Positions 1 through 26,754 of a stretch of DNA of 32,000 nucleotides are shown in pieces. How positions within the stretch are numbered: the stretch's first letter is position 1; each line of letters starts with the position of its first letter. Where the stretch lies: contig OY762721.1 in NCBI GenBank assembly GCA_963666345.1, forward strand, positions 3,661,258 to 3,693,257. Direction: 5' to 3'. This DNA is from Desulfatiglandales bacterium (GTDB lineage: Bacteria; Desulfobacterota; DSM-4660; Desulfatiglandales; Desulfatiglandaceae). The position numbers and the translations under genes were made by a program. Under the pieces are notes generated by a model, which saw nothing but the letters and a program-made list of their open reading frames with translations, ran no database searches and was not told the DNA's origin.

Positions 1-1
1 A

Positions 2-7634: not shown

Positions 7635-8585
7635 TCAGGCCCCCTTTACAGGCAGGGCCGGTTCCTCATTTACCGTGAGAGTGAATATGTCTGCCCTTGC
7701 GTAGTGGCCTGTTACGTCAAAATCGACCCTTGCCCTTACGACTTCGGCCATATCCAGTTCGGCATAGAGTATGCCATCCCTGTCATACAGGGGTCCTTCA
7801 ATCACCTCCCCGAACGGGGATATGATAGCGCTTCCACCTCTGGTGATTATATCAGGCTGGTCTTTTAGTTCCTCAAGATTCCTTATCTCCTCAGGATACA
7901 TATCCTTTGTCATGAACTGGTTACAGGAAAGCACAAAACAGCGGCTTTCGCACGCAATATGCCTCATGCTGGCGTGCCAGGAATCCCTTGAGTCGGCGGT
8001 GGGGGCAAGATATATGTCCAGTCCTTTGCCGTACATGGCCATTCTTGCAAGAGGCATGTAGTTTTCCCAGCATATGAGTCCGCCTACCCTTCCAAATGGG
8101 GTATCTATGACCGTCAGGGTGCTTCCGTCCCCCTCGCCCCATATGAGTCTTTCGGAACCTGTGGGTTTGAGTTTCCTGTGTTTTCCGAGCAGTTCTCCAT
8201 GGGGCCCGAAATAGACAAGGGTACAGTAAAGTGTCCCGCGGCTGAAGGTCGAATCGCGCTCAATGACCCCGATAGCAGCAAACACGCCTGCTTCCCTTGC
8301 CGCCTTTCCGATCAGCTCGGTCTGCCTGCCCGGTACGTCAACCGCTGTTTCCCAGTAACGCTGCCACACCTTTCTTCCTTCAGGACTCCTGCTTCCCACA
8401 ACCATCCCGAAATTGAGTCCCCTCGGGTAGGCGGGTATGAGCGCCTCGGGAAAGAGTATGAATTTGGCCCCTTCAGATGCGGCCTCATGAATGAGTTCGC
8501 ACACCCTATCCGTTATGGCGTCCCTGTCAAAGGGAACAGGAGCTGCCTGTACCACCGCGACCTTCACAGGAGATGGTGATGTCAT
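7635..8585 (-). CDS. Nitrilase / carbon-nitrogen hydrolase (aliphatic/aromatic nitrilase-like)
   Basis: Glu-Lys-Cys triad context: FPEALIPAYPRGLNFG, KHRKLKPTGSERLIWGEGDG, GGLICWENYMPLARMAMYGKGLDIYLAPTAD. Confidence 0.92.
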   Translation of the reverse strand: MTSPSPVKVAVVQAAPVPFDRDAITDRVCELIHEAASEGAKFILFPEALIPAYPRGLNFGMVVGSRSPEGRKVWQRYWETAVDVPGRQTELIGKAAREAGVFAAIGVIERDSTFSRGTLYCTLVYFGPHGELLGKHRKLKPTGSERLIWGEGDGSTLTVIDTPFGRVGGLICWENYMPLARMAMYGKGLDIYLAPTADSRDSWHASMRHIACESRCFVLSCNQFMTKDMYPEEIRNLEELKDQPDIITRGGSAIISPFGEVIEGPLYDRDGILYAELDMAEVVRARVDFDVTGHYARADIFTLTVNEEPALPVKGA

Positions 8586-9310: not shown

Positions 9311-10510
9311 ATGAACCGGATGAAGACCATAGCCGTGGTAGGCACCTTTGACTCGAAGGGGGAGGAGCATCTCTTTTTAAAGGAGCGGATAGAGAAAAGA
9401 GGCTTTTCAGCCCTCACCATAAACGTGGGCACAAAAGGACCCGGGACCTTCAAGGCGGATATCGATCTGTTCATCCGGCTTGAAAAAGTGGACGGGCTTG
9501 ACCATGAAAGCAGAGACAGAGCCATCGCAGCCATGCTTCAAAGGGCAAAGGAGCTTGTAAGACAACTCCATGAAAGAAAGGAAATCTGTGGAATAATCTC
9601 CGCCGGCGGGGGCACCGGCACGCATCTGGGCACCGGCATAATGAGGGCGGTTCCGATGGGTGTTCCCAAGGTAATGGTATCTACTGTGGCATCAAGGGAT
9701 ATGTCGAAGGTGGTGGGTACCAGGGATATCACCATGATGCACAGTGTGGCTGACCTTCTGGGGGTAAACAGCATATCAGGAGCCGTGCTTGACAGGGCCG
9801 CGGCCGCGGTCTGCGCAATGACGGGTAACGGCTGGAGTCCGGGGATTGAAAAGAAAAGGATCGCGCTCACGTTTTTCGGTTTTATCACTCCGGCGGCTGA
9901 AATGATAAAGGAGCGGCTTGAGCGGCTTGACTACGAGGTGATCGCCTTTCATGCCAACGGCACGGGCGGCATGGCAATGGAGGAGCTTGCGTCCGAAGGC
10001 TATTTCAGCGGCATTCTCGATCTTGGGACACATGAACTGGCCGATGAACTGAAAGGGGGATACTGCTCCGGCATAGGGCCTGAAAGGCTTGTCCTCCCGC
10101 CGGGCATTGTTTTGCCGAGGCTCGTGGTTCCGGGGGGTCTTGACTGCGCGGTCCTTGAGTTTACAAGAGAAAAGATCCCTGAAAAATACAGGGGCAGGAA
10201 GATATTTTTCTATGATTTCCGTTCGGCCGTCCGTTTGAATGAAAAGGAGAGTCTTTTCATTGCCGCGCAGCTTTCGGAAAAATTGAACAAGTCACCTGCC
10301 GGGACAAGGGTTCTTGTCCCCCTGGATGGATGGTCAGAGGCGGACAGGCAGGGAGGTCCTCTTTACGACCCGGCATTGAGTGGGCTTTTCCTTGATAGAT
10401 TGAAGCGGACCCTTGATCCTGAAATAGAGGTCATGGAGGTCGGGATGCATATTAATGATCCTGCGTTTGCGCGGCTTGCCGCCCGAATCATGCATAAGAT
10501 GATCGGATGA
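9311..10510 (+). CDS. Tm-1-like ATP-binding domain / UPF0261 family protein (copy 1)
   Basis: KTIAVVGTFDSKGEEHLFLKERIEKRG, GIISAGGGTGTHLGTGIMRAVPMGVPKVMVSTVAS, VLVPLDGWSEADRQGGPLYDP. ATG at 9311 is preceded by GGGGAGGA. Confidence 0.88.
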   Translation: MNRMKTIAVVGTFDSKGEEHLFLKERIEKRGFSALTINVGTKGPGTFKADIDLFIRLEKVDGLDHESRDRAIAAMLQRAKELVRQLHERKEICGIISAGGGTGTHLGTGIMRAVPMGVPKVMVSTVASRDMSKVVGTRDITMMHSVADLLGVNSISGAVLDRAAAAVCAMTGNGWSPGIEKKRIALTFFGFITPAAEMIKERLERLDYEVIAFHANGTGGMAMEELASEGYFSGILDLGTHELADELKGGYCSGIGPERLVLPPGIVLPRLVVPGGLDCAVLEFTREKIPEKYRGRKIFFYDFRSAVRLNEKESLFIAAQLSEKLNKSPAGTRVLVPLDGWSEADRQGGPLYDPALSGLFLDRLKRTLDPEIEVMEVGMHINDPAFARLAARIMHKMIG

Positions 10511-10529: not shown

Positions 10530-11051
10530 TCAGGCATCATGCGCTTTCCCCTTGGATTTTAAGCCCTGTTTGAAACTTTCCCAGAACTCCTTGTCATTGT
10601 CCTGCCACGCAGCCCCGAATCTTCTTTCAAAATAGGATGAAGGCAGTTTCTCCTGCCATTTTCCCCAGGGGTCTTCCCCCTTTTTCTTGGCCTCGATAAT
10701 GTCATTTATAAAAGAGGCGATATCCGCGATCTCATCTTTCGGTATATAGGAGTCTGCACCCTGTTTTATCGATTTTACCAGGTTGTCGGGCGTAAACGCA
10801 TGGGCTGTGAGCATGACGGCCGTTGTGCCTTTACTGTTGCAGATTTCAAGAAGTCGGTAACCGTTGACCCCCATGATATCAAGCACTGCTACGTCGAATT
10901 CCTCTTTTTCAAGCAGTTCCCGCGCCTCCTCAAACGTGGAGGCACTGACCACGTCACACATGAATAAAAGTTCTTCCAGTACCTGCAGAATGTCAGGTTC
11001 ATCATCGACTATCAAGACCCTTTTACCGTCAAGCAAAGCGGTTTCAGACAT
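10530..11051 (-). CDS. Single-receiver-domain response regulator with short non-DNA-binding C-terminal tail
   Basis: RVLIVDDEPDILQVLEELL, FDVAVLDIMG, AVMLTAHAF, GADSYIPKDEI; no recognisable output domain in the last ~55 aa. Confidence 0.85.
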   Translation of the reverse strand: MSETALLDGKRVLIVDDEPDILQVLEELLFMCDVVSASTFEEARELLEKEEFDVAVLDIMGVNGYRLLEICNSKGTTAVMLTAHAFTPDNLVKSIKQGADSYIPKDEIADIASFINDIIEAKKKGEDPWGKWQEKLPSSYFERRFGAAWQDNDKEFWESFKQGLKSKGKAHDA

Positions 11052-11196: not shown

Positions 11197-12144
11197 TTAC
11201 CTCCTTCTTGCAAGTATCCTGTTCATGAGCGCCCCTATCCCCTGGGGCGTCATGTCTTTCGGGGTCAGCTTGAGGAGTATGTCCACAAATGCCCGGGCCG
11301 CCATTGAAAGATACTGCCCCTCCAAAAAGGCGATGCTCACGTCAAGAAATATCCTGCCTCCTTCAAGGGGCACGGTTGAAAGGCTTTTCCCCTTGAGCTC
11401 AAGGGCGACCGCCTCCTTTACCAGAAAGGAGATCCCTTCTCCCCTTTGAACCAGCTGTTTGATAAATTCCGTGTTGCTGGTATCCATGAGTATGTCGGGT
11501 GTGCAGCCGTTTCGAGTGAAAAGCTCGTTTACCAGCCTCCTAGTGCCTGATCCGGTCTCCTTCATGATGACCGGCTCTCTGGCCAGATCCCTTATGGAGA
11601 CGGTCTTTTCTGCGGCCAGCGGGTGATCAGGTGCGAGTATCACGACCAGCTCTTCCTCGCTGAAGGGAATGAAACGGACATCGGGGTTTTCCTCCGCCTT
11701 GGCGATGATGGCCACTTCGTTTTTGAAGTCCAGCAGGCTGTGAATCATGTCAAGGGAGCTTCCCTCATCCAGGTAGATCCTAACCTGAGGGTAGGTTTCA
11801 TGAAAACCGGTAAGAAGATAAGGCATGAAGTAGCGGGCATAGGTCTTTGTCGTTCCAAGCCTCAGGACTCCCCTTTTGAGTTCCTTCATCTCCTCTATCA
11901 GGTGCTCAAGGTCCCTTTCATAATCAAATACCTTTACGGCGTATTCAAAAAGTGTCTTACCCTCGTCCGTAAGATATATGCTGCGGCCCTTTCTCTTAAA
12001 GAGCTTGAAGCTGCAGTGTTCTTCAAGGAGCCTTATCTGGGCGGTAACGGCCGGCTGGGTGATGTATAGACTTTTGGCTGCAAGGGTAAAACTGAGGTGC
12101 CTTGCTGTGTGGTAAAAGACCCTGAGTTGATTGAAATTGATCAT
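11197..12144 (-). CDS. LysR-family transcriptional regulator
   Basis: NFNQLRVFYHTARHLSFTLAAKSLYITQPAVTAQIRLLEEHCSFKLFKRKGRSIYLTDEG, then a substrate-binding-type effector domain; upstream of the aromatic cluster. Confidence 0.93.
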   Translation of the reverse strand: MINFNQLRVFYHTARHLSFTLAAKSLYITQPAVTAQIRLLEEHCSFKLFKRKGRSIYLTDEGKTLFEYAVKVFDYERDLEHLIEEMKELKRGVLRLGTTKTYARYFMPYLLTGFHETYPQVRIYLDEGSSLDMIHSLLDFKNEVAIIAKAEENPDVRFIPFSEEELVVILAPDHPLAAEKTVSIRDLAREPVIMKETGSGTRRLVNELFTRNGCTPDILMDTSNTEFIKQLVQRGEGISFLVKEAVALELKGKSLSTVPLEGGRIFLDVSIAFLEGQYLSMAARAFVDILLKLTPKDMTPQGIGALMNRILARRR

Positions 12145-12830: not shown

Positions 12831-14690
12831 ATGGCAGATCAAAAGGCAGGAAGATTTCCGGATCCTCACGATTTCAAGGTGCCTCCCGGCCTGGAGGGCT
12901 GGGAAGAGATGTATCCATCGCACTATCTTTTTTCAAAGGAGAGGGGGGAATGGGAAAAGCAGCAGTTCTGGTATCAGGACAAGATTCATGCCCCTGAACC
13001 GGTGCCCCCCCTGGACCTGATCTTCCAGGAGGCCTGGCAGATCTCCCTTTCACAGTACACCACAAGGGTGTTCTGCATCCCCCCTGCCCAGGGAATCGCC
13101 CAGAGGATGGTCGGGTGCTACATGTACATCTGTGCCATCGCGCCGCCGCCCGATAAGGTTATCGGAGAAAAGGCGGCCCATTTCGAAAAGCGCGTTTTCT
13201 ACGTGTTCGAGCACTATGACGAACTGTGGGACAAGTGGCTCAACAAATTCAAGGCCCTCGGCAACGAGATGTCCGCGGTTGAGATCCCGGAGCAGATGCC
13301 CAAATTCGTGCCTGAAGATCAGGTGCTTCCCGCGCCCAGGGGCTACTACATATCCTATGACGTGATGGAGGCATTCGACAGGCTCGTAAACATGATGTTC
13401 AAGGGATGGCAGTACCACTTCGAGATGCTTAACCTCACTTATCTTGCCTACCTCATGTTCGGCGACGTATCAAGAAAGCTCTTTCCGGGAATCAGCGAGA
13501 GTGCCATCGGCAAGATGGTGGCAGGCGCCTATGTGTCGATGTTCAGGCCGGAGGAGGAGCTGTGCAGACTCGCAAGGCTAGCCTCTTCATCCCGCGGCGT
13601 TGCGGATATTCTGAAGACCGATATGTCGGTAGGGCAGAAGGTCTCCAAGCTTAACAAGATAACCGACGGCAAACACTGGCTGGAGGAGTTTGAGAAATCA
13701 AAGGACCCCTGGTTCTACGTGTCCTGCGGAAGCGGGTGGCTGCATCATGAGGGAAGCTGGATTACCAACCTTGAAATACCCTACAGCTATATAAAGGGCT
13801 ATGTGGAAAGCCTTGAAAGGGGCGAGAAGATCGAGCGCTCCCTTGACCAGATAGACAAAGAAAGGGACCAGATAGTAGAAGAGTACCGCAAACTGATCAA
13901 AACCGATGAAGACCGAAAATCGTTTGACGACGCCTACAAGACCATCCGGACCATATACCGGTACGCGGAGGATCATCTGTTCTGGGTGGAGCACTGGTTT
14001 CACACCATCTGGTATGAAAAGATAAGGAGATTCGGAAGCCTTCTCAAAGGAAACGGAATGCTCAACGAGGTGGACGATATATTCATGTTCACCCGCTATG
14101 AGATCCCGGAGATGCTGACCGAGCTTTCCACCGGCTGGGCCCTGGGAGTGGACATACCTTTAAGGGGCGATTTTTACAAGGCAAAGGCAAAAAAGAGGAG
14201 GAAGATCCTGGATGCTGCATCCGAATGGGCACCCACCCCCGCGCTCGGCGTACCACCCGAGGAGGTGGCGGAACCCTTCACGATCATGCTCTGGGGCGTG
14301 ACGACCGATAAGGTAAAGGAATGGCTCAAGGGTGTGGAGGTCCCGAAAGGAACTGAGATCAGCGAGATAAAGGGATTTGCGGCTTCGGCAGGGGCCGCGG
14401 AAGGTCCGGCCAGGGTGCTCAAGCTCTTAAAGGAGATCGTCGACATAAAACCGGGTGAGATTATCGTGTGCCCGTCGACCAATCCCTCGTGGGCGCCGGT
14501 GTTTACCAAGATCAAGGCGGCTGTCACGGACATCGGCGGGCTTACAAGTCATGCGGCCATAGTCTGCCGGGAATACGGAGTACCATCGGTCACGGGAACG
14601 GGAGTGGCCACATCCGTGATTAAAACCGGAGACATAATCAGGGTCGACGGAGACACAGGGCTGGTAACCATAGTGAAGCGGGCGCAGTGA
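12831..14690 (+). CDS. ppsA: Phenylphosphate synthase alpha-like subunit (PEP-synthase central/phosphohistidine domain protein, ~619 aa)
   Basis: Novel N-terminal region (FPDPHDFKVPPGLEGWEEMYPSHYLFS..SLSQYTTRVFCIPPAQG) fused to a PEP-utilising mobile domain, GGLTSHAAIVCREYGVPSV, with the phosphorylatable His codon at 14550-14552; immediately followed by a PEPS N-terminal-domain protein. Confidence 0.75.
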   Translation: MADQKAGRFPDPHDFKVPPGLEGWEEMYPSHYLFSKERGEWEKQQFWYQDKIHAPEPVPPLDLIFQEAWQISLSQYTTRVFCIPPAQGIAQRMVGCYMYICAIAPPPDKVIGEKAAHFEKRVFYVFEHYDELWDKWLNKFKALGNEMSAVEIPEQMPKFVPEDQVLPAPRGYYISYDVMEAFDRLVNMMFKGWQYHFEMLNLTYLAYLMFGDVSRKLFPGISESAIGKMVAGAYVSMFRPEEELCRLARLASSSRGVADILKTDMSVGQKVSKLNKITDGKHWLEEFEKSKDPWFYVSCGSGWLHHEGSWITNLEIPYSYIKGYVESLERGEKIERSLDQIDKERDQIVEEYRKLIKTDEDRKSFDDAYKTIRTIYRYAEDHLFWVEHWFHTIWYEKIRRFGSLLKGNGMLNEVDDIFMFTRYEIPEMLTELSTGWALGVDIPLRGDFYKAKAKKRRKILDAASEWAPTPALGVPPEEVAEPFTIMLWGVTTDKVKEWLKGVEVPKGTEISEIKGFAASAGAAEGPARVLKLLKEIVDIKPGEIIVCPSTNPSWAPVFTKIKAAVTDIGGLTSHAAIVCREYGVPSVTGTGVATSVIKTGDIIRVDGDTGLVTIVKRAQ

Positions 14691-14778: not shown

Positions 14779-15849
14779 ATGGAACATATACTCGGTTTTG
14801 AAAGACTTGACAGGGGTTCCCTCGCCCTTGTGGGGGGAAAGAACGCGAGCCTGGGTGAGATGATAAAAAGCGGGGTCCGCGTGCCTCCCGGTTTTGCCGT
14901 TACAACCGACAGTTATCTTGGTTTTATAACAAAGACCGGTATAAAGGAGAAGATCTATGAGGCCCTCGCAGGTCTTGATCCTGAGGATGTGGAATCGCTC
15001 GACCGGGCAAGCGGCAAGGCGCGCGGGCTTATCATGGATTCATCCATGACAAGGGAGGGGAGGGATGCAATCGCAGGCGGTTATAAAACACTGTGCCGGG
15101 ATTGCAATAAAGATTACCTGCCTGTGGCGGTCAGATCAAGCGCAACGGCCGAGGACCTCCCGACCGCCAGTTTCGCCGGCCAGCAGGATACATTCCTCTG
15201 GGTCCTTGGGGCGGATAAGGTCATAGGCAATGTCCAGGCCTGCTGGGCAAGCCTGTTTACCCCCCGTGCCGTCAGCTACAGGATTAGGAACAAGTTTTCC
15301 CATGAAAAGGTACTCATAAGCGTCGGTGTCCAGAAGATGGTCAATTCGAGGAGCGCCGGTGTCATGTTTACCCTCAATCCGACCAACGGGGACCCTTCAA
15401 AGGTGGTCATAGAGGCAAGCTGGGGGCTGGGCGAGACGGTTGTTTCAGGTTCGGTTAATCCGGACAAGTTCGTGGTGGACAAGGTGATGCTGGAGATCAA
15501 TGAAAGGGACATATCCAAAAAGCATATAGAATGCCTGTATGACCCGGATGAAAAAAAGGTGGTCAACATCGAGGTGGAGCCGGAAAGACAGCAGAAATGC
15601 TGCCTGGAGGGCCGTGAGGTAAGGGAACTGGCCAGACTGGCAAAGGAAATAGAGGTCCATTACGGATGCCCCATGGACATCGAGTGGGCCATAGAAGAAG
15701 ACGCGTCCTTTCCCGAGAACATATTTATCGTTCAGGCACGGCCCGAGACCGTCTGGAGCCGGAAGGAGTCAAAGCCCGTCATAGGGGCGAAGAGCGGCTA
15801 TCAGCTTTTGATGGAAAAGGCGATGACAAGGATAAAGCTGAGGACATGA
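14779..15849 (+). CDS. ppsB: Phenylphosphate synthase beta-like subunit (PEP/pyruvate-binding ATP-grasp-type domain protein, ~356 aa)
   Basis: LVGGKNASLGEMIKSGVRVPPGFAVTTDSY, VAVRSSATAEDLPTASFAGQQDTFLWV, IEASWGLGETVVSGSVNPDKFVV, MDIEWAIE; ends before the swivel and C-terminal PEPS domains. Confidence 0.78.
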   Translation: MEHILGFERLDRGSLALVGGKNASLGEMIKSGVRVPPGFAVTTDSYLGFITKTGIKEKIYEALAGLDPEDVESLDRASGKARGLIMDSSMTREGRDAIAGGYKTLCRDCNKDYLPVAVRSSATAEDLPTASFAGQQDTFLWVLGADKVIGNVQACWASLFTPRAVSYRIRNKFSHEKVLISVGVQKMVNSRSAGVMFTLNPTNGDPSKVVIEASWGLGETVVSGSVNPDKFVVDKVMLEINERDISKKHIECLYDPDEKKVVNIEVEPERQQKCCLEGREVRELARLAKEIEVHYGCPMDIEWAIEEDASFPENIFIVQARPETVWSRKESKPVIGAKSGYQLLMEKAMTRIKLRT

Positions 15850-16013
15850 ATGAGATAAAATCCCCTTGTCCGATTAAGCTGGAGAAGAACCTTTTCAATA
15901 ATCCGGCATTCAGGGAAAACCAGGATAGAAGGATTTTGCATTTAAGGGTCATCTCCAAAAGAGTTGATTTAAATGAAGGAGTCTTTGCTCTTCTTATTCC
16001 TCGCTCAGTCCCA

Positions 16014-16032
16014 CCCTTCGACAAGCTCAGGG
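16014..16032. repeat. REP-like motif CCCTTCGACAAGCTCAGGG
   Basis: Exact motif in the intergenic region between ppsB-like and the four-helix-bundle remnant; it resembles a short extragenic repeat recalled from other environmental genomes. Confidence 0.4.
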
Positions 16033-16079
16033 CGGGTTCCCGGAAGGGGCCAAGGGTTCTAGGTATGGGAGGAAAACGA

Positions 16080-16273
16080 GTATAGAGTATGTGAGATTTC
16101 TCTATATTGCATATGGTTCAGTCTGTGAATCGGAAATTCGGGCCATGATATCAGCTGAATTGGGTTATTTGAAAGAAGTAAGGCTTCAGGAATTAAGGGG
16201 GAAAATCGGGGATGTCGAGACAATGCTCAAAGCGTTGATCAAATCCCCGGAAAGAAAACCCTCGAATCCTTGA
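16080..16273 (+). pseudogene. Truncated four-helix-bundle (S23/IVP-like) protein remnant, second copy, inverted relative to 8701-9050
   Basis: GRKTSIEYVRFLYIAYGSVCESEIRAMISAELGYLKEVRLQELRGKIGDVETMLKALIKSPE; homology to the other copy stops abruptly upstream (no IPSNIAEG). Confidence 0.75.
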
Positions 16274-16294
16274 CTCCTGGAACCCTTGGACCCT

Positions 16295-16316
16295 TTCTCC
16301 CAACTAATTGGGAGAA
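16295..16316. repeat. 22-nt palindrome TTCTCCCAA-CTAA-TTGGGAGAA
   Basis: 9-bp perfect stem with 4-nt loop. A near copy (one G-T type mismatch) is at 8696-8717 beside the other four-helix-bundle remnant. Confidence 0.85.
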
Positions 16317-16359
16317 GAACCGCATTTTTAACCGGCAGAAAGGGAGGTAAACAGGATCG

Positions 16360-17760
16360 ATGAAAGACATGAGAGATTTTATCCAAGAGGCGGAAGCCCG
16401 GGGCCTGCTCCACAGGATAAAGGCCGAGGTGGACTGGAACCTTGAGCTGTCCCATATCGCAAAACTTAACGAGGAAAACCAGGGACCGGCACTGCTTTTC
16501 GAAAACGTCAAGGATTACGACTCCCCAGTCATCACGAGCGTGTGCACCACCACCGAAAGACTTGCCCTCATAATGGGCATGCCGGGGGAATCGTCCTTGG
16601 TGGACATCATGAGGATGTGGGTGGAGAAAAATGAAGACAGGATTCCCCCCAGATATGTGGACAATGCGCCGTGCAAGGAAAACATCATGATGGGTGATGA
16701 TGTGGATCTTTTCAGGTTTCCCGCGCCCAAGTTTTATCCGATGGACGGCGGGCGTTTTTTCGGTACCGCCCATTTCGTGGTCACAAAAGACCCTGATACC
16801 GGGTGGGTCAACCTTGGCACATACAGGCTCCAGCTCCTGGACAAAAATCATCTCGGAACCCAGTTCATAAAGGGAAAGCATGCGGATATCATGCTCAAGA
16901 AATACCAGAAGCTGAAGGAGCCGATGCCTGTTGCGGTAGTGGTGGGATGCGACCCGATACTCTTTCTGATGGGGGCCTCAAGGCTCTCGGCCTTTGAAAG
17001 TGAATATGATTTCGCAGGCTCCATAAGGGGTGAGGCAATAGATGTAATAAAGGCTGAGACAAACGACCTGCCGGTTCCGGCCACGGCCGAGATCGTGGTG
17101 GAAGGGGAGGTGGACGCGGACACATTCATGGACGAAGGCCCGTTCGGCGAGTACACAGGCTACTATTCAGGTGTGGGGACCGACCCGAGAAATTTCATAG
17201 ACGTAAAGTGCGTGACCCACAGGACAAATCCCGTGTTCTGGTCCACCACGGTGGGACGCGCGGTGACGGACACCCACATGACCATGGCGCTTACCTACGG
17301 CGCGACCCTGTGGCAGCAGCTTGTCGCCATGAAAATCCCCGGCATAAAGGCGGTCTACTGCCCGCCCGAGGGCTCGGGACGCTTTCTTGCCATAATTTCC
17401 ATGACCCAGATGTATCCGGGACACGCGGATCAGGTCCTTACCGCCGCCATATCGACCGAGATGGGCGCCTACGGCCTCAAGACCGTTATCGTGGTGGATG
17501 ATGATATCGACCCGTGGGATATATCAAGGGTCATGTATGCGCTCAGCTTCAGGTTTCAGCCTAACAGGAGTCAGGTAATAAAAAGAGGGAGGTCCACCCC
17601 GCTTGATCCTTCTCTTCCCTTAAACGCAAGGGAGATCACAGGCAGGCTCCTGCTGGACGCCACCATACCGTATGACTGGAAGGAAAAGCCGATCCCTATT
17701 GAGCTTGATCCGGAGCTGGTGGAAAAGATAAAGGGCCGATGGTCTGAACTGGGGTTTTAG
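16360..17760 (+). CDS. UbiD-family prenyl-FMN-dependent (de)carboxylase (phenylphosphate carboxylase / hydroxybenzoate decarboxylase-like)
   Basis: ALLFENVKDYDSPVITS, VVVGCDPILFLMGASRL, VPATAEIVVEGEVD, MDEGPFGEYTGYYS, IYCPPEG-like, TVIVVDDDIDPWD, RGRSTPLDPS. Confidence 0.92.
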   Translation: MKDMRDFIQEAEARGLLHRIKAEVDWNLELSHIAKLNEENQGPALLFENVKDYDSPVITSVCTTTERLALIMGMPGESSLVDIMRMWVEKNEDRIPPRYVDNAPCKENIMMGDDVDLFRFPAPKFYPMDGGRFFGTAHFVVTKDPDTGWVNLGTYRLQLLDKNHLGTQFIKGKHADIMLKKYQKLKEPMPVAVVVGCDPILFLMGASRLSAFESEYDFAGSIRGEAIDVIKAETNDLPVPATAEIVVEGEVDADTFMDEGPFGEYTGYYSGVGTDPRNFIDVKCVTHRTNPVFWSTTVGRAVTDTHMTMALTYGATLWQQLVAMKIPGIKAVYCPPEGSGRFLAIISMTQMYPGHADQVLTAAISTEMGAYGLKTVIVVDDDIDPWDISRVMYALSFRFQPNRSQVIKRGRSTPLDPSLPLNAREITGRLLLDATIPYDWKEKPIPIELDPELVEKIKGRWSELGF

Positions 17761-17777: not shown

Positions 17778-19439
17778 ATGAAGCCTATCCGCTATGATCC
17801 GGAAGAGATAGAGAAAAATTTGAGGGAGGGTTTCTGGGATAAGACCATCCTGCCCGACTTTTGGGAGAAAAACGCCAGGCTGTGGCCTGACAGGGAGGCC
17901 CTTGTCGATTCCCTCGGATCCAGGCTGACCTGGGCCGAGGCCGCGCAGAGGATCGACAGGATCGCGTTCGGGCTTATAAAGGAGGCGGGTGTTAAGAGGG
18001 ATGACAGGCTCATGGTGCAGCTTCCTAACTGCGTGGAGCAGGTCCTTGTTCGCCTTGCCTGTGAAAAGGCGGGGGTCCTTTCCATACCCGAGATGACCAC
18101 CTTCAGGCAGACGGAGCTTGCGGACATCGCAAAAAGGACGGACGCGGCGGGCATGGTAATTGCCAGGAGCTACAGAAACTTCGACCACCATGAAATGGCA
18201 AGGGAACTTCAGGCTCAGCTGCCGGGACTCAGGCACATCATAGTGGCGGGGGACGACGTGCCTCAAGGCTGCATCTCGTTGAACGAGATCATGGCTCACC
18301 CATATGAGAAGGAGTTCGACATCCTGGAGCTTATCGCCAGGAAGCTTGACGCGGTGGAAGAGGTGGGCTTTCTTATCACGACCACCGGCACCACAGGCCT
18401 TCCGAAGCTTATCGAGCACAGGATAGCGGCGCGCGAGATCTGGACCGCAAGATCGCATGTGAAAAACTGGAAGCTCGGCCCTGATGACTGCGTGATCGCC
18501 ATCGCCCCGCTCGCAGGGGCCGCCGGGGGCACGCCCGCCTATGTTACGGCACCGGTGGGGGGAGCCAAAATCGCCCTTGAATACCAGTACAGGGGAGAGG
18601 AAACGCTCGCCTTCATGGAACAGGAGCGGGTCACGGTGATCGCCCTTGTGCCGACCCAGCTCGCAAGGCTGCTGGAACTTCCCACCGGCAAATATGACCT
18701 TTCATCTTTAAGGATAATAAAGACCGCCGGAGGGTACCTGCCGCCCCCGCTTGCAAAGGAGGCCCAGGAGAGGTTCAACTGCCCCATCCTCGGGACATAC
18801 GGCACGCAGGATACAGGTTCCATATCAGGGGTGCCGATCGACGCACCCGAGGACCTGAGAAACTTCACCGTTGGAAGGCTTCATCCGGGAATAGAGATAA
18901 AGATACTGGATGATGAGGGAAACCGGGTTGAAAAAGGGGGCGTGGGCACCCTATGGTTCAAGGGGCCGGGAAATTCGATCGGTTATTACAGGGATATAGA
19001 TAAAACCATGAACGAGGCCTTTGACAGGGACGGTTTTGCCACGCCCGGAGACCTTGTGGAGCTTATGGATGACGGTTATATCAAGATCATGGGCAGGAAG
19101 AAGAACATCATCATAAGGGGCGGGCAGAACATATATCCAAGGGAGATAGAGGACTATCTGCTGGCGCACGAAAAGGTCACTAACGCGGCCGTCGTTCCCA
19201 TGCCTGATCCTCAGATGGGTGAGAGGGCGTGCGCCTTTGTCACGGTCAAAAAGGGAGAGATGTTCCAATTCGAGGAGATGATCGCATATCTCAAGGAAAA
19301 GAAGATCGCTCCCTTTAAGCTGCCTGAAAGGCTCGAGGTACTCGACGCCCTTCCCCTGGTCGGGGAAAGCGGCAAGATAAACAACAAGGAAATGGTCAGG
19401 ATCATAACCGAGAAGCTTAAGGAGGAGGGGAAGATCTAA
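17778..19439 (+). CDS. AMP-binding acyl-adenylate/CoA ligase, 2,3-dihydroxybenzoate-AMP ligase (EntE)-like
   Basis: FLITTTGTTGLPKLIEHR, ILGTYGTQDTGSISG, TPGDLVELMDDGYIKIMGRKKNIIIRGGQNIYPREIEDYL, VGESGKINNKEMVRII; the N-terminal FWDKTILPDFWEKNARLWPDREALVD resembles EntE/DhbE. Confidence 0.88.
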   Translation: MKPIRYDPEEIEKNLREGFWDKTILPDFWEKNARLWPDREALVDSLGSRLTWAEAAQRIDRIAFGLIKEAGVKRDDRLMVQLPNCVEQVLVRLACEKAGVLSIPEMTTFRQTELADIAKRTDAAGMVIARSYRNFDHHEMARELQAQLPGLRHIIVAGDDVPQGCISLNEIMAHPYEKEFDILELIARKLDAVEEVGFLITTTGTTGLPKLIEHRIAAREIWTARSHVKNWKLGPDDCVIAIAPLAGAAGGTPAYVTAPVGGAKIALEYQYRGEETLAFMEQERVTVIALVPTQLARLLELPTGKYDLSSLRIIKTAGGYLPPPLAKEAQERFNCPILGTYGTQDTGSISGVPIDAPEDLRNFTVGRLHPGIEIKILDDEGNRVEKGGVGTLWFKGPGNSIGYYRDIDKTMNEAFDRDGFATPGDLVELMDDGYIKIMGRKKNIIIRGGQNIYPREIEDYLLAHEKVTNAAVVPMPDPQMGERACAFVTVKKGEMFQFEEMIAYLKEKKIAPFKLPERLEVLDALPLVGESGKINNKEMVRIITEKLKEEGKI

Positions 19440-19655
19440 CGGCCTCCCCGGTTCGGGAATATAGCCGTGGTGTAGGGTTATATGTTATAGGTTATTTGAA
19501 AATGAGTGAACAGAAGCCTTGTCTTCGGCTGCGTACTCTAGTTTTCCGGCAATCTTTCTAACCAATAACGAACAACCAGATGCCTAACCAGTGTGCCATT
19601 TTAAGGAAACGTGGGCAAACGAGTGGTTGCTCCATGCCAGGAAGGAATCCCCCCC

Positions 19656-20252
19656 ATGACCCATGACGGCAAAAGGCCCCTGATCCTCTTTGTATGCTGC
19701 GGAAACAGGGAAAGGAGCGTGATAGCGGAAAACCTTTTTAAAAAGATGCTGAAAAAGGGATATCCTGATTTATCAGACCGGGTGGATGCGGCCTCAGCCG
19801 GCATATTCCCCAGGTCATATTTAGAGCATGCAGGGGAAAACGGGGTCTTTTTCGAAGAACCTTTTTTTTCAAAAAAGGCCAATACCTATGCCGTGGATTA
19901 CCTCCTGAAAAAGGGGATAGACGTAGCATCATACAGGTCAAGGCGGATTAACTCAGGTCTTGTCACAGATGCCCTTCTCATACTTGCCGTAGATCGGGTG
20001 ATAAGGGATGAGATCCTTTTCTTTTATCCGGAGGTCCAAGGCAGGGTCCATACCCTCAGGGAGTTCGTGTTCGGCCCGGAAGGGGACCTCGATATAGGTG
20101 ATCCCATGAAACTGCCCGTTGTTGATAAGGACACCGGCGCCTGGATATGGCCTGACGAATACCCCGTGAGGTATATAAAGGAGATCGAGGAGAGCCTTGA
20201 AAAGGGAATGGTCAAGATAGTGGCTTACATAATGAGCGAGGGGATGGATTAG
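19656..20252 (+). CDS. Low-molecular-weight protein tyrosine phosphatase-like protein
   Basis: LILFVCCGNRERSVIAENLF (V-C-x-G-N-x-x-R-S P-loop), AASAGIF, late acidic DP (GDPMKLP). ATG 19656 preferred over upstream GTG 19611. Confidence 0.78.
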   Translation: MTHDGKRPLILFVCCGNRERSVIAENLFKKMLKKGYPDLSDRVDAASAGIFPRSYLEHAGENGVFFEEPFFSKKANTYAVDYLLKKGIDVASYRSRRINSGLVTDALLILAVDRVIRDEILFFYPEVQGRVHTLREFVFGPEGDLDIGDPMKLPVVDKDTGAWIWPDEYPVRYIKEIEESLEKGMVKIVAYIMSEGMD

Positions 20253-20253
20253 A

Positions 20254-21492
20254 TTGAATAGAACAAAGGGTGCGATCATAGTTCTGGTAATGGCTGAGGA
20301 AAAATGGGTGGAGGCGAATTTTTTCCGTGCTCAAATTACCTCTCTCGGCCACAGGGCCGAGATCCTTGATATGGGCCTTACCGGAGGGCCTGCCGGGCCC
20401 TGCGCTATCGGACGGGAGGAGGTGATAGCGGCAGGCGGCACAGGCGTGGACGAGGCCTCTCTTATAACGGACAGGGGCAAGAGGATGCCCCTTATGATAA
20501 AGGGGGGGAGAAAAAAGGTAAAAGAGCTTTACGAACAGGGAATGCTCACAGGGGTCGTGAGCCTTGGGGGGACCACGGGGACCCAGATGGGGACCTCCAT
20601 CATGAAGGCGCTTCCATTCGGCGTTCCCAAGCTCGCGGTGTCAAGCACGGCATCGCTTAAGGGGTTCGCCTCAAGATACCTCGGTACATCGGATGTCTCG
20701 CTCATGCACACGGTGGTCGAGATCGCGGGGCTTAACCGGTTCATGAAAAACGCGCTTGCACGCGCGGCAGGGGCCGTGTGCGGCATGGTGGAGGGGGGGC
20801 TCAGGGAGCCTGTCGCGCCGGAACAGGGGGGTGTGAGTCCGGTTGTAGCCATGACCCACTTCGGGCCGTGCGAACATTGCGCGGTAAGGGTTCGAAATCT
20901 ACTTGAGGAGCGCGGTTACCAGGTGGTGGGTTTTTCCGCTGCCGGTATCGGGGATCGGGCCATGGAGGAGATAATCGAATCGGGCGGCGTCTTTTCTGCG
21001 GTCATAGATCTTGCCACGGGCGGGGTGGGTGAGGAACTGCTGGGATTTGCCAGGGCAGCGGGGGCCTCAAGGCTTGAGGCGGCGGGAAAAAAGGGGATAC
21101 CGCAGGTGATTGCCACAAGCGGGGTCAATTTCGGCTCCCCCTGGAAGTACAGGTACAAGCCTGAATATGAGTCAAGAAAAAAAATTGAGTATGACAGAGC
21201 CCGCACCTTTATAAGGCTCTCGCAAGACGAGTTGGTCCGGGTGGCGACCGTCATGGCGGAAAAGTTGAACCGCGCAGCGGGTCCGGTGAGGGTGGTAATC
21301 CCGCTTGGCGGGTGGTCATCCGTTGATAAGAAGGGAAGCTTCTTTTATGATGGTGAGGCGGATCAGGTATTTGTCGAGACGCTGGAAAGGGAATTGCGGG
21401 ACGATATCGAGGTCAGGGAAGTGGACGCGGACCTTGAGACGGATGAATTCGCAAAGGTTATCGTGGATTCGTTTCTGGAAATTATTTCGTAG
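20254..21492 (+). CDS. Tm-1-like ATP-binding domain / UPF0261 family protein (copy 2, divergent N-terminus)
   Basis: MLTGVVSLGGTTGTQMGTSIMKALPFGVPKLAVSSTASLKG, VRVVIPLGGWSSVDKKGSFFYD; TTG start one base after the previous stop. Confidence 0.85.
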   Translation: MNRTKGAIIVLVMAEEKWVEANFFRAQITSLGHRAEILDMGLTGGPAGPCAIGREEVIAAGGTGVDEASLITDRGKRMPLMIKGGRKKVKELYEQGMLTGVVSLGGTTGTQMGTSIMKALPFGVPKLAVSSTASLKGFASRYLGTSDVSLMHTVVEIAGLNRFMKNALARAAGAVCGMVEGGLREPVAPEQGGVSPVVAMTHFGPCEHCAVRVRNLLEERGYQVVGFSAAGIGDRAMEEIIESGGVFSAVIDLATGGVGEELLGFARAAGASRLEAAGKKGIPQVIATSGVNFGSPWKYRYKPEYESRKKIEYDRARTFIRLSQDELVRVATVMAEKLNRAAGPVRVVIPLGGWSSVDKKGSFFYDGEADQVFVETLERELRDDIEVREVDADLETDEFAKVIVDSFLEIIS

Positions 21493-21537: not shown

Positions 21538-21921
21538 ATGGAATACAGGTTCATGACGCATGAGGGGTGCTATGATCTTGTGGCGAACGCAAGACTGGTG
21601 GGAGACGATCTGCTGGTTGCCATATGGGGCGGAGACAGGCCCCATATCGGCGCTGTATCCATGGCCCAGCCCAGGGCAAGCCTCAGGGACCCTTCAAAGC
21701 TGAGTGCTACTGCTTCCGTGTTCACGTATGTGGGGCACAAGGAGGACATTCTCGCAAAACCCGCTTCAGAGACCCTGGCCTCCGCCCTGAACAAGAAGGT
21801 GGTGGTAACGGCAGGTATCCACTGGGATGATATGGAAGAAAAGGGCATTAAAAGGGTGATAAAAAACTGTGAGATTCTGATCGGGATGATTGTAAAGGAG
21901 TTTTCATCTTCAAAAAGCTGA
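21538..21921 (+). CDS. Small LpdD-like prenylated-flavin chaperone domain protein
   Basis: GDDLLVAIWGGDRPHIGAVSMAQPRASLRDPSKLSATASVFTYVGHKEDILAKPASETLASALNKKVVVTAGIHWDDM; directly upstream of ubiX in a ubiD-containing cluster. Confidence 0.72.
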   Translation: MEYRFMTHEGCYDLVANARLVGDDLLVAIWGGDRPHIGAVSMAQPRASLRDPSKLSATASVFTYVGHKEDILAKPASETLASALNKKVVVTAGIHWDDMEEKGIKRVIKNCEILIGMIVKEFSSSKS

Positions 21922-21950: not shown

Positions 21951-22523
21951 ATGAAAAAAAGACTCATTATCGCGATAACCGGCGCAAGCGGTGTGATTTA
22001 CGGTGTGAGGATGCTCGAACTGATAAGGGAACACGGCTTTGAGACGCATCTTATAATATCAGAGGCGGGCAAGAAGAATATCGAGATCGAGACAGGCTTT
22101 AAGCTCAGGGATATAAAGGCGCTTGCCGATTACAGCCATGAAAACATGGACGTGGGGGCCCCGCTTGCAAGCGGCTCGTTTCTGACGGGGGGTATGGTGG
22201 TGGTGCCCTGTACCATCAAGACCCTGTCAGGGATTACCAATTCCTACAACGACAACCTGATCGTGAGGGCGGCAGACGTCACGTTAAAGGAGGGGCGCAA
22301 GCTGGTGCTGGTTGTAAGGGAGACCCCTCTTCACAAGGGGCATCTGAGACTCATGACCATGGCGGCCGATGTGGGCGCCCACATACTTCCCCCGGTCCCA
22401 TCCTTTTATAACAAGCCTGAAACCATCGACGACATAATCAATCAGACCATAGGAAAGATCTTCGACTACCTGGGCGTGGAGCACGATCTGTTTGCCCGCT
22501 GGGGAAGATATGACTCATGCTGA
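21951..22523 (+). CDS. ubiX: UbiX-family flavin prenyltransferase
   Basis: KKRLIIAITGASGVIYGVRMLELIREHG, APLASGSFLTGGMVVVPCTIKTLSGI, LVVRETPLHKGHLRLM. Confidence 0.95.
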   Translation: MKKRLIIAITGASGVIYGVRMLELIREHGFETHLIISEAGKKNIEIETGFKLRDIKALADYSHENMDVGAPLASGSFLTGGMVVVPCTIKTLSGITNSYNDNLIVRAADVTLKEGRKLVLVVRETPLHKGHLRLMTMAADVGAHILPPVPSFYNKPETIDDIINQTIGKIFDYLGVEHDLFARWGRYDSC

Positions 22524-26095: not shown

Positions 26096-26335
26096 ATGGA
26101 AAAAGTAGGAGCATATGAGGCCAAGACGCACCTGCCCAAGTTGCTTGAACGGGTGATGAAAGGGGAACGCATCACAATCACAAAACATGGTATCCCTGTC
26201 GCGGTACTCCAGTCGCCTGATCCTGAAAAAATGGTGAATACCGAATCGGTTATCGCCGAAATCCGTGAATTGCGGGACATGCATCGGCTTGACGGCGTCT
26301 CAATCCGTGAGATGATTGATGAAGGAAGAAGATGA
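26096..26335 (+). CDS. Type II antitoxin, Phd/YefM family
   Basis: MEKVGAYEAKTHLPKLLERVMKGERITITKHGIPVAVLQSP; stop overlaps the next start. Confidence 0.93.
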   Translation: MEKVGAYEAKTHLPKLLERVMKGERITITKHGIPVAVLQSPDPEKMVNTESVIAEIRELRDMHRLDGVSIREMIDEGRR

Positions 26336-26754
26336 TAATGGGCTCCTTTGTGGTGGATAATTCAATTGTGATGTCATGGTGTTTTAAAGATGAGGCAAAT
26401 CAATATGCCGATGCGGTGCTGGATTTTCTTTCCGAGGCAACCGCCTTTGTCCCGTCGATCTGGCCGTTTGAAGTAGTAAATGTATTGCTGGTGGCGGAGC
26501 GTCGAAAACGCCTCAGCGAAGCGGACAGCGTCCGGTTTATGACACTGTTGTCGCATCTGCCGATAGTTGTGGAATATGAACGTCCGGAAAGGACGATGAA
26601 GGATCTCCTGGCACTTGCAAGATCCAATAACCTTTCAAGCTATGACGCCTCCTATCTCGATCTTTCCATGAGAAAGGGCATTCCCATTGCCACATCGGAC
26701 AGACGGCTGATAGAGGCCTCAAAAAGGATCGATGTCCCGATTCTTGAAATTTGA
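26332..26754 (+). CDS. vapC: Type II toxin, VapC-like PIN-domain nuclease
   Basis: FVVDNSIVMSWCFKDE, PSIWPFEVVNVL, SYDASYLDLSMRKGIPIATSDRRLIEASK; 4-nt overlap with antitoxin. Confidence 0.93.
   Translation: MIMGSFVVDNSIVMSWCFKDEANQYADAVLDFLSEATAFVPSIWPFEVVNVLLVAERRKRLSEADSVRFMTLLSHLPIVVEYERPERTMKDLLALARSNNLSSYDASYLDLSMRKGIPIATSDRRLIEASKRIDVPILEI

Follow-up and report, generated by a model that had tools for sequence, protein, structure and literature searches.

A long phosphatase-fold protein paired with UPF0261 genes in a phenylphosphate synthase and UbiD gene cluster of a Desulfatiglandales bacterium

The DNA considered here is a stretch of 32,000 nucleotides from a Desulfatiglandales bacterium (assembly GCA_963666345.1, contig OY762721.1, positions 3,661,258 to 3,693,257), which we call the window and number from its first nucleotide. 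Its forward strand carries a gene cluster in the order PpsA-PpsB-UbiD-CoA ligase-LMWP-UPF0261b-LpdD-UbiX (Table 1). LMWP, the subject of this study, encodes a predicted cysteine phosphatase with the fold of the low-molecular-weight protein tyrosine phosphatases (LMW-PTPs). A preliminary description of this DNA, made from the sequence alone, had recognized an arylphosphate cluster that lacks the delta subunit of the haloacid dehalogenase (HAD) type. Our analysis agrees with this view: PpsAB, UbiD, and UbiX are present, and a scan of the large open reading frames (ORFs) and the small intergenic ORFs of the window found no HAD-type hydrolase or delta subunit, no gamma subunit, and no PpsC. For reasons developed below, we tentatively regard LMWP as a candidate accessory, cysteine-dependent aryl-phosphate phosphatase that would be paired with the UPF0261 kinases encoded in the same cluster.

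Table 1. Features of the window, beginning with LMWP and its parts
Feature	Coordinates	Strand	Evidence
LMWP, 198-aa "long" LMW-PTP-fold cysteine phosphatase (predicted)	19656..20252	+	Pfam LMWPc, AF2 model, Foldseek, homologues
Phosphate-binding loop V13-C14-C15-G16-N17-R18-E19-R20-S21, CX5RS; C14 is the predicted nucleophile	19692..19718	+	Homologue conservation; aligned with P-loop of 4egs, 4pic, 2cwd
D149-P150, aligned with general-acid Asp loop of LMW-PTPs and YwlE	20100..20105	+	Alignment to 4egs ("DPYG", T. tengcongensis LMW-PTP) and 4pic ("ADPF", YwlE)
Insertion 1, residues ~50-78, aromatic-rich, in place of the canonical short variable loop	19803..19889	+	Gap in alignments to 4egs and 2cwd; conservation
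Insertion 2, residues ~152-169, K-L-P-x-(I/V)-D-x-x-T-G-x-W-x-W-P	20109..20162	+	Conservation; model
UPF0261b, divergent MarK/Tm-1-type kinase paralogue	20254..21492	+	Pfam UPF0261 + UPF0261_C; PDB 9mpy (MarK) E=4.6e-47
AMP-forming aromatic-acid CoA ligase (DHB-AMP-ligase / acyl-CoA-synthetase type), upstream neighbour of LMWP	17778..19439	+	Pfam AMP-binding; NCBIfam matches; 76-83% identity in related loci
UPF0261a, canonical MarK-type kinase paralogue, "TFDSKG" motif, His219 equivalent kept	9320..10510	+	Pfam; match to MarK
PpsA-like, phenylphosphate-synthase alpha type, PEP-utilizers mobile domain	12831..14690	+	Pfam PEP-utilizers; NF006153, 862 bits
PpsB-like, PPDK_N ATP-binding domain	14779..15849	+	Pfam PPDK_N, E=1e-118
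UbiD-family carboxylase, phenylphosphate carboxylase beta-type	16360..17760	+	TIGR02724 phenyl_P_beta, 502 bits (cut-off 469)
LpdD-like prFMN chaperone (Pfam PAC_bac / LpdD_chaperone)	21538..21921	+	PF21758, E=1e-35
UbiX flavin prenyltransferase	21951..22523	+	NF004685, 255 bits; start per public assemblies
LysR-type regulator, divergent from PpsA	11197..12144	-	Pfam HTH_1 + LysR_substrate; conserved in related loci
Stand-alone receiver-domain protein, 173 aa, short C-terminal tail	10530..11051	-	Pfam Response_reg

The LMWP gene lies within a forward-strand ORF (19611-20252) whose in-frame ATG at 19656 is preceded, at a distance of 8-14 nt, by the Shine-Dalgarno sequence GGAAGGA; a TAG stop occupies 20250-20252. 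The identical locus is present in three public assemblies, where the same 198-aa product has been called. This protein matches Pfam family PF01451 LMWPc (E=4.4e-15; 56.6 bits, cut-off 23.2), and the match is split into two stretches because an insertion interrupts it. The GC content of the gene is 0.49, and 0.58 at third codon positions (GC3), compared with 0.54-0.57 and 0.64-0.71 for its neighbours. Furthermore, the gap on its 5' side (19440-19655) measures 217 nt in the window versus ~30-65 nt elsewhere. The low GC and GC3 values together with the wide upstream gap are compatible with a later insertion of the gene. At the other end, the TTG start codon of UPF0261b follows 2 nt past the LMWP stop and its ribosome-binding site, GAGGGGA, lies inside the 3' end of LMWP, and the two genes are translationally coupled in the window. 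No terminator-like sites were found between the ligase gene, LMWP, and UPF0261b.

A homologue search over 5.8 billion proteins provided the alignment used to assess the catalytic residues. The search gave 125 homologues with 49-90% identity to LMWP, all of ~200 aa and all from metagenomes or metagenome-assembled genomes (MAGs), and counts for the phosphate-binding loop (P-loop) are restricted to the 109 homologues that include the N-terminus. The preliminary description had drawn attention to a CX5R(S) loop, VCCGNRERS, as well as to a distal DP, and had called the catalytic loop unusual. All three observations hold up. The loop is intact from V13 to S21, with C14-x-G-N-R-E-R-S invariant (109/109) and C15 found in 106 of these proteins. 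Moreover, the loop is indeed atypical, since position +4 is an Arg (Arg18, invariant in the family) instead of the canonical Ile, Phe, or Thr, and position +5 is Glu19 instead of Cys. The apparent absence of the loop in some homologues is due to truncated gene calls; in protein P0116, for instance, the loop lies upstream of the called start in locus L018. The distal DP corresponds to D149-P150, which aligns with the catalytic Asp loop of structures 4egs and 4pic. By alignment, the window protein therefore carries the complete catalytic set of C14, N17, R20, S21, and D149. The general-acid Asp is a feature of the window protein that is not universal across the family, where residue 149 is Asp in 101 of 121 sequences, Asn in 19, and Ser in the remaining one, and where Pro (61) and Ser (56) predominate at position 150. 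The Asp loop of the window protein reads "DPMK" and is missing the aromatic pair of the DPYY motif. Its only cysteines are C14 and C15; at position 180, where the family has a near-invariant Cys, the window protein has Ser.

LMWP is also longer than typical LMW-PTPs, as had been noted before. The solved LMW-PTPs that it matches have 142-164 aa, and the excess of about 40-50 residues is due to two aromatic-rich insertions. P52 and F71 are invariant in insertion 1, and Y55, P69, N76, and Y78 are nearly so. Insertion 2 is absent from the canonical LMW-PTPs that we aligned and contains the invariant residues P154, W163, and W165. An AlphaFold2 model built on the 121-sequence alignment (predicted local distance difference test score [pLDDT] 91.6; predicted template modelling score [pTM] 0.89) has a four-stranded parallel alpha/beta fold of the LMW-PTP type, in which the P-loop follows a strand formed by residues 9-15. 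Insertion 1 is modelled as a helix (53-61) followed by a loop, and insertion 2 as short strands near residues 155-164. When the model was compared with the PDB using Foldseek, the best 50 matches listed were all LMW-PTP, YwlE, or Wzb structures with a probability of 1.0. They are led by YwlE (4pic, 4etn, 4kk3/4), 4egs, TT1001, and Wzb, at TM-scores of ~0.8 on the target and 22-27% identity. Judged by the predicted structure, LMWP is closest to the YwlE arginine phosphatases and sits in the phosphatase branch rather than with ArsC. LMWP represents a separate, long subfamily whose aromatic-rich insertions are placed at the two loops that border the active-site crevice in canonical LMW-PTPs.

These structural data bear out the LMW-PTP-type identity proposed in the preliminary description and speak against an arsenate-reductase-type fold, which had been considered there as an alternative. 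We consider it extremely improbable that LMWP is a thioredoxin-coupled arsenate reductase of the ArsC type, or some other redox protein that resides in the cluster by chance. Although the best NCBIfam match by E-value is arsC_pI258_fam, this match is confined to the P-loop region (residues 10-45), and the ArsC model TIGR02691 scores 24.6 bits against a cut-off of 174.3. There is no ArsC structure among the best 50 Foldseek matches listed. Because C14 and C15 are the only cysteines, the Cys82/Cys89 relay of ArsC is missing. Likewise, no arsenate-related ars-operon context was seen among the relatives of LMWP, whose synteny with the ligase and UPF0261 genes is strict over more than 20 loci.

LMWP shares with YwlE and other bacterial LMW-PTPs (4pic, 4kk3, 4egs, 2cwd, and Wzb 7dhd/2wmy) the overall fold, the N-terminal CX5R(S) loop, the Asn at +3, the Ser that follows the Arg, and the Asp loop. 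It differs from them in its low sequence identity, its length, its CCGNRERS loop, and the absence of DPYY, and its genomic partners are UPF0261 and an aromatic-acid CoA ligase rather than the BY-kinase, McsB, or Sua5 genes that accompany YwlE and the LMW-PTPs. The Thr at P-loop position +4 (C-T-G-N-T-C-R-S) has been reported as the determinant of phosphoarginine (pArg) specificity in YwlE, and +4 is Ile or Phe in the tyrosine phosphatases. We rejected membership in the YwlE-type arginine phosphatases on the basis of the loop (CTGNTCRS in 4pic versus CCGNRERS) and the invariant Arg18 at +4. LMWP also fails all NCBIfam equivalog models, including NF007520 for Wzb (18.7 bits versus 243) and NF008486 (19.5 versus 247). 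These scores, the Arg at +4 and Glu at +5, the "DPMK" sequence, and the ligase and UPF0261 neighbours led us to reject membership among the Wzb/Etp/PtpA-type tyrosine phosphatases as well. LMWP is thus a member of the LMW-PTP superfamily that falls outside the Wzb/Etp, YwlE, and ArsC families, and it is an analogue, not a homologue, of the HAD phosphatases PpcD and HpeD/AcvF that are discussed below.

The gene neighbourhoods of LMWP point to its partners. A scan of 185,579 species genomes for LMWP orthologues yielded only 17 loci, all of them from MAGs, which belong to Desulfatiglandales, Desulfobacteraceae, Dehalococcoidia, Acidobacteriota, and one Syntrophus-like organism. Further LMWP loci were obtained from look-ups and from a metagenome scan with alignment A5, which mostly returned ordinary short LMW-PTPs (loci L031-L046 are uninformative). 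A UPF0261b-type gene lies directly 3' of LMWP in 21 of the 23 loci that have readable downstream DNA, and, over the loci of the LMWP clade as a whole, a CoA ligase gene precedes it in 21. LMWP never adjoins UbiD in these loci. The exceptions to the common arrangement are L017 and L021, where LMWP follows a LysR gene and is located beside benzoyl-CoA-reductase-like genes.

An exhaustive HMMER search of 1.84 billion representatives places the LMWP orthologous group in a single 50%-identity cluster. This cluster is surrounded by more distant long proteins (~190-210 aa, 25-42% identity), a wider family whose members have both insertions and a C-x-x-N-(R)-x-R-S loop. For this study, we defined a "long LMWP" subfamily by a length of ~190-210 aa, the presence of both insertions, and a UPF0261 gene within two genes, which is an ad hoc rather than a curated grouping; the window protein has all of these features (alignment A3 and gene contexts). 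Four distant clades of long proteins are informative. The gene order is ligase-LMWP-UPF0261-UPF0261 in L023 and SDR-LMWP-UPF0261 in L024, where SDR is a short-chain dehydrogenase/reductase gene and the last two genes overlap by 4 nt. In L025, LMWP follows an aldehyde ferredoxin oxidoreductase (AFOR) gene and UPF0261 is two genes away, and in L026 LMWP is followed by the N-terminus of a UPF0261 protein ("GTLDTKGEE") in an otherwise unrelated neighbourhood. No UbiD gene was found in the retrieved flanks of these four clades. Because the distant clades pair with UPF0261 without UbiD, we conclude that UPF0261, and not UbiD, is the conserved partner of the long subfamily. The linkage between the two genes is tight and in many cases translationally coupled. 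This LMWP-UPF0261 pairing is new.

Equally informative is a cluster that lacks LMWP. All loci except L050 and L051 were retrieved via LMWP itself, and L051 (JBAPTR010000162.1, 10001-19251, from a Desulfatiglandaceae MAG), which was reached via a PpsA homologue, is the one complete cluster found independently of LMWP. It is orthologous to the window cluster, with identities of 83% for PpsA, 87% for UbiD (the closest of all loci), 80% for the ligase, and 66% for UPF0261b, which carries "MAEEKW". It also holds UPF0261a, LysR, PpsB, the receiver protein, LpdD, and UbiX. LMWP is absent at this cluster, where the ligase stop and the UPF0261b start are separated by 53 nt. Since the genes of L051 fall inside the divergence range of the clusters that carry LMWP, the gene shows a presence/absence polymorphism within one orthologous cluster type. 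LMWP is therefore more likely to be an accessory gene that is dispensable at the cluster level than a core carboxylase subunit. The lower GC and GC3 of the window copy point the same way.

Published work on Desulfatiglans anilini offers a second point of comparison. In clusters of strict anaerobes, only beta-type UbiD genes are present, and neither a gamma nor a delta subunit has been convincingly identified (PMC6114531, PMC7500099). The sole delta candidate of D. anilini is a KdsC-like gene elsewhere in the genome whose protein was not detected, and carboxylase activity was not demonstrable in extracts (PMC6114531). In vitro, its two UbiD subunits convert phenylphosphoamidate to 4-aminobenzoate without any phosphatase (PMC7500099). 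Our genome scan found no LMWP orthologue in this species, and there is no tyrosine-phosphatase-like entry among the listed rows of its proteome table (PMC7500099).

Apart from LMWP, the phe and ani clusters of this organism have the same components as the window cluster, UPF0261 genes among them. According to the listed rows of supplementary Table_1 (PMC7500099), the phe cluster includes UPF0261 gene H567DRAFT_02057 and the ani cluster includes UPF0261 gene 03869. The first product is abundant only in the last of four abundance columns, which we read as phenol, and the second only in the first two columns, which we read as aniline/4-aminobenzoate. These rows also list a DHB-AMP-ligase-type ligase (02058) and receiver proteins (02050 and 03867) for these clusters. 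The published figures of the D. anilini clusters draw the UPF0261 genes as uncharacterised. To the extent covered by the listed rows, UPF0261 is an overlooked, substrate-induced part of the D. anilini phenol and aniline clusters, and its recognition as such is new. It appears to be a standard component of anaerobic phenol/aniline carboxylation that has gone unrecognised.

These comparisons bear on the proposal, made in the preliminary description, that LMWP functionally replaces the delta subunit. On this reading, phenylphosphate would be split by LMWP and the resulting phenolate delivered to UbiD for para-carboxylation. One part of this proposal stands, in that a phosphatase fold is indeed found in a cluster without delta. 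Furthermore, LMW-PTP chemistry frees the aryl-oxide in its first half-reaction, the window UbiD is of the phenyl_P_beta type, and genes for HAD, delta, and gamma proteins are absent from the window and from the called genes of L018 and L020-L025 (for MAG loci, absence of HAD-delta applies to the contig and not to the whole genome). The nature of the phosphatase component in strict anaerobes is also unsettled (PMC6114531). The coupling to UbiD is not supported, however. LMWP is never found beside UbiD, its conserved partners being the ligase and UPF0261; its distant relatives occur with UPF0261 and have no UbiD in the retrieved flanks; L051 has a UbiD that is 87% identical but no LMWP; and D. 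anilini yielded no orthologue in the genome scan or the listed proteome rows and has a UbiD pair that needs no phosphatase to act on phenylphosphoamidate (PMC7500099). Therefore, we consider this role unlikely, and because orthologous clusters lack LMWP, the protein cannot account in general for the missing delta subunit.

Mutual exclusivity of LMWP and a HAD delta subunit, which had been suggested as a diagnostic pattern, proved to be weakly informative. Locus L016 carries both LMWP and a HAD_2 hydrolase gene (4695-5426, after a second, distant PpsAB pair), but this hydrolase is phosphoglycolate-phosphatase-like rather than delta-type. LMWP was also compared with PpcD, the HAD/KdsC-like delta subunit of Thauera aromatica. 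Both are small phosphatases encoded in PpsAB/UbiD clusters and could cut the same P-O-aryl bond (PMC6114531). In contrast to PpcD, which uses a HAD Asp nucleophile and Mg2+, LMWP is predicted to use a metal-independent Cys nucleophile; it is also not adjacent to UbiD, is dispensable in L051, and has relatives without UbiD. Homology of LMWP to the HAD-family delta subunit was rejected because LMWP has no HAD match in Pfam or NCBIfam, which leaves it an analogue at most.

If UPF0261 is the conserved partner of LMWP, then what is known of this family becomes relevant. MarK from Novosphingobium aromaticivorans (PDB 9MPY) is a kinase that turns ATP into ADP as it phosphorylates acetovanillone and related aromatics at the phenolic OH (PMC12624787). 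Reported in 2025, this was the first catalytic function for UPF0261 and is the only one demonstrated (PMC12624787). The pathway consists of the kinase, a carboxylase, a HAD phosphatase (AcvF/HpeD), and a CoA ligase; MarK is active alone in vitro, and its ATP and substrate sites are ~25 Å apart with an unexplained path of transfer (PMC12624787). Both UPF0261 paralogues in the window match 9mpy over the full length (E=1e-43 to 1e-47). UPF0261a retains both the "T(L/F)DSKG" nucleotide motif and a counterpart of His219, a residue that hydrogen-bonds the phenolic oxygen in MarK (PMC12624787). In UPF0261b, "MAEEKW" takes the place of "TLDTKG" but preserves the Lys, Ser stands at the position of MarK His219 (MAFFT alignment), and His304 and His348 are also substituted (phmmer alignment). 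The paired paralogues suggest, at the sequence level, a heteromeric kinase or a kinase with a pseudo-kinase partner; a UPF0261a/b heterodimer would be plausible because MarK is a homodimer. Clusters in the window and L001-L030 likewise carry a canonical and a divergent UPF0261 gene, the latter with "MAEEKW" or "MLDEKK" and, in most cases, Ser or Thr at the His219 position.

From its predicted fold, catalytic residues, subfamily, neighbourhood, and pattern of presence and absence, we tentatively infer that LMWP acts on an aryl phosphate, in the direction of hydrolysis, and in conjunction with UPF0261. C14 would serve as the nucleophile, the C14-C-G-N-R-E-R20-S21 loop would hold the phosphate, and D149 would be the general acid. 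LMWP would dephosphorylate an aryl phosphate, or perhaps an aryl phosphoamidate, via a Cys-phosphate intermediate. Its substrate would be made within the pathway by the PpsAB dikinase, the UPF0261a/b kinase pair, or both. LMWP would then form the phosphatase arm of a kinase/phosphatase module on an anaerobic phenol/aniline-type route that leads from PpsAB through UbiD to the CoA ligase. This module may trim, recycle, or finish phosphorylated aromatics, either by a post-carboxylation step like that of HpeD/AcvF or by control of the pool. The latter option, already raised in the preliminary description, fits the data.

This proposed role has chemical and biological precedents. Phenyl phosphate, p-nitrophenyl phosphate, and similar simple aryl phosphates are efficiently hydrolysed by LMW-PTPs. 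Aryl-phosphate pathways in which a dedicated phosphatase is found beside the kinase include those of PpcD and HpeD/AcvF, and HpeD acts after carboxylation (PMC9618137). HpeD/AcvF is a NagD-type HAD phosphatase of the acetovanillone/4-hydroxyacetophenone pathway that, like LMWP, is encoded with an aryl kinase of the PpsAB-like and/or UPF0261 type (HpeHI/AcvAB or MarK), a carboxylase, and a CoA ligase (PMC9618137, PMC12624787). Whereas HpeD is placed after the carboxylation step, the place of LMWP relative to carboxylation is a proposal. The two systems also differ in the phosphatase fold, in the carboxylase (a biotin enzyme that acts on the acetyl side chain versus a UbiD enzyme that acts on the ring), and in that HpeD/AcvF operates in aerobic organisms.

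Several points weigh against the proposed phosphatase role. The closest characterised relatives of LMWP (YwlE, Wzb, and PtpA) are protein phosphatases rather than metabolite phosphatases. A kinase and a phosphatase that act on one metabolite constitute a futile cycle unless there is an intervening step, and none was identified. The replacement of D149 by Asn in 16% of the family is odd for a hydrolase that acts on a poor leaving group. In addition, UPF0261b lacks the three substrate-binding histidines of MarK and so may not be an aryl kinase at all. Finally, because the loci were found through LMWP, the adjacency counts are biased toward clusters that contain it.

Some of these points favour a regulatory role instead, wherein LMWP would remove phosphate from a protein of the cluster, such as UPF0261 in autophosphorylated form, PpsA at the phospho-His of its mobile domain, or the receiver protein, in the manner of the Wzb-Wzc and YwlE-McsB target relationships. 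The nearest solved structures and sequences are pArg and phosphotyrosine protein phosphatases, and the location of LMW-PTP genes next to kinase genes is the norm in bacteria. In Wzb-Wzc pairs, as here, an LMW-PTP-fold gene lies beside and is co-transcribed with a gene for an ATP-binding, kinase-type protein. The variable presence of LMWP among orthologous clusters would suit a regulator, as would the conservation of the receiver protein in the clusters. Furthermore, the degenerate nucleotide motif of UPF0261b and its lack of the MarK substrate histidines mean that it may not act on small aromatics. A natural fusion, P0129, joins PEP-utilizers and PPDK_N domains with five LMWPc domains. However, neither protein phosphorylation nor autophosphorylation is known for any UPF0261 protein, and the activity that has been shown is on small aromatics (PMC12624787). 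Unlike Wzc, the partner of LMWP has the Tm-1/MarK fold, whose known substrates are small phenolics, and it lacks Tyr-cluster and BY-kinase features. Missing as well are the residues that confer specificity on the protein phosphatases (no Thr at +4 as in YwlE, no Cys at +5, and no DPYY pair), the aromatic-rich insertions around the active site are conserved, and the Wzb and Etp equivalog models score ~19 bits against cut-offs of 243-247. On balance, we regard a protein-phosphatase function as doubtful.

A further alternative is that LMWP is a Cys phosphoryl carrier or transferase rather than a hydrolase. In the lactose/cellobiose family of the phosphotransferase system (PTS), EIIB has a related alpha/beta fold and its N-terminal Cys carries the phosphoryl group. 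LMWP might operate in an EIIB-like relay with PpsAB, UPF0261a/b, or both, and move phosphoryl groups between ATP-derived phospho-enzymes and phenolic or anilinic substrates. The donor to C14 would be PpsA-His~P, a UPF0261 kinase, or an aryl phosphate, and the group would then pass to another acceptor. We judge both the relay and this donor scheme to be very unlikely, but some observations do point in their direction. The phospho-enzymes of LMW-PTPs can transfer to alcohols. Position 149 is Asn in 19 of 121 homologues, and its conservation across the wider long subfamily is poor. In P0129, a PpsA/PpsB-like dikinase is joined to five LMWPc domains that include "ENP" in place of "DP", and one of these domains gives a weak PTS_IIB match. 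The 25 Å between the ATP and substrate sites of MarK, with its unexplained transfer path (PMC12624787), would also accommodate a carrier.

Other observations oppose a carrier function. Most members of the family keep the hydrolytic set of C, N, R, S, and D, MarK alone suffices in vitro (PMC12624787), and the fusions that were seen make up only one family, in an unrelated phylum. LMWP itself has no match to PF02302 (PTS_IIB; E<=1) and, unlike EIIB, keeps the Arg, Ser, and Asp of hydrolytic phosphatases. No PTS genes are present in the window. Moreover, LMWP is missing from L051 and was not found in D. anilini, and no obligatory relay can therefore depend on it. If a carrier function were nonetheless true, it would represent a small-molecule phosphorelay of a new type in the anaerobic activation of aromatics and would explain how UPF0261 kinases bridge the distance between their two sites.

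The fusion proteins merit description in their own right. P0129 (MFI5349297.1, 1679 aa, from an Elusimicrobiota MAG), noted together with P0331 (3117 aa), is a giant protein in which PEP-utilizers and PPDK_N domains are combined with five LMWPc domains. Three of the LMWPc domains read "ENP" at the catalytic "DP" site, and one lacks the Cys. In Rosetta-stone fashion, this architecture connects dikinases of the PpsAB type with LMW-PTP-fold domains.

Two other functional assignments for the LMWP-UPF0261 pair were considered and rejected. A role in the supply of dimethylallyl phosphate for prenylated flavin mononucleotide (prFMN), in which the pair would feed UbiX, does not agree with the distant LMWP-UPF0261 pairs that have neither UbiX nor UbiD nearby. 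Recovery of ATP from phenylphosphate by a reversed UPF0261 reaction was rejected by reasoning only, as such a reversal would cancel the PpsAB step and leave carboxylation without its driving force.

Our favoured, though tentative, view of LMWP as an accessory aryl-phosphate phosphatase has implications for how anaerobes activate aromatic compounds. A full-text literature search found no papers that link an LMW-PTP to phenylphosphate synthase or UbiD. As far as the searchable literature shows, LMWP, which is present in a subset of clusters, is the first non-HAD phosphatase candidate in aryl-phosphate catabolism. How strict anaerobes carboxylate phenylphosphate or phenylphosphoamidate is unsettled (PMC6114531, PMC7500099). 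The LMWP-UPF0261 pair provides a testable way to approach both the role of UPF0261 proteins when aromatics are degraded anaerobically and the question of whether phosphorylation serves there as a removable activating group.

Several additional features of the window cluster and its relatives were noted. An LpdD protein has been assigned a role as a prFMN chaperone (PMC10865409). A PpsA homologue search reached only metagenomic proteins with at least 81% identity and did not extend to D. anilini PpsA or PasA. The "Magic" cluster for benzene activation (PMC13101534) was considered and found to be irrelevant to the window cluster. Rfam and tRNA scans of the window returned nothing. Copies of the receiver protein with 60-66% identity are present in L001-L007, L022, and L051, and they lie within the operon in L002, L022, and L051.

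Two types of UbiD are found in otherwise orthologous clusters. Compared with the window UbiD, one type is ~52-54% identical and the other 75-87% identical; the comparison sets L005, L009, L011, L018, L022, L028, and L029 against the window, L002, L007, L010, L012, L016, and L051. This arrangement recalls Ppc-beta and Ppc-beta2 of D. anilini, which share 51.7% identity and are both needed together for activity. Loci L012 and L016 (~370-3480) contain a second PpsAB pair that is only 41-44% identical to that of the window. Furthermore, L050 (CP070652.1, 5.57 Mb) has an orphan PpsA of 82% identity that lies beside genes for a LysR regulator, an HD-domain protein, and a NUDIX hydrolase, without PpsB or UbiD. 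L022, too, has an HD-domain gene, located after UPF0261b.

Benzoyl-CoA-reductase-type genes flank LMWP in some loci (L020 4484-11058; L021 10955-14649; L025 3470-5311). They encode either AFOR/BamB-like tungsten enzymes with ferredoxins or HgdD/BcrBC-like proteins with a BcrAD ATPase, which fits a product that feeds the benzoyl-CoA pathway. The molybdenum enzyme 4-hydroxybenzoyl-CoA reductase was not seen near any LMWP gene. Some clusters also encode a multi-pass membrane protein of ~190-235 aa (L018 3086-3670; L009 1504-2082; L016 3768-4472) that is weakly related to the GPR1/FUN34/YaaH (AceTr) acetate-uptake transporters. By this resemblance, it may be a channel for the substrate or product.

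The gap between PpsB and UbiD (15850-16359) is 511 nt in the window versus ~110-210 nt in other loci. It contains an ORF (16091-16273) that matches the C-terminal half of the TIGR02436 "four helix bundle" protein (E=1e-7) and is probably a gene remnant. The remaining flanks of the window are unrelated to the cluster. Positions 1-8585 carry a truncated histidinol dehydrogenase-like gene, a TctCBA transporter, and genes for a sulfatase, an SDR, a 3-hydroxyacyl-CoA dehydrogenase, and a nitrilase-family protein, and a PhdYeFM/PIN toxin-antitoxin pair lies downstream at 26096-26754.

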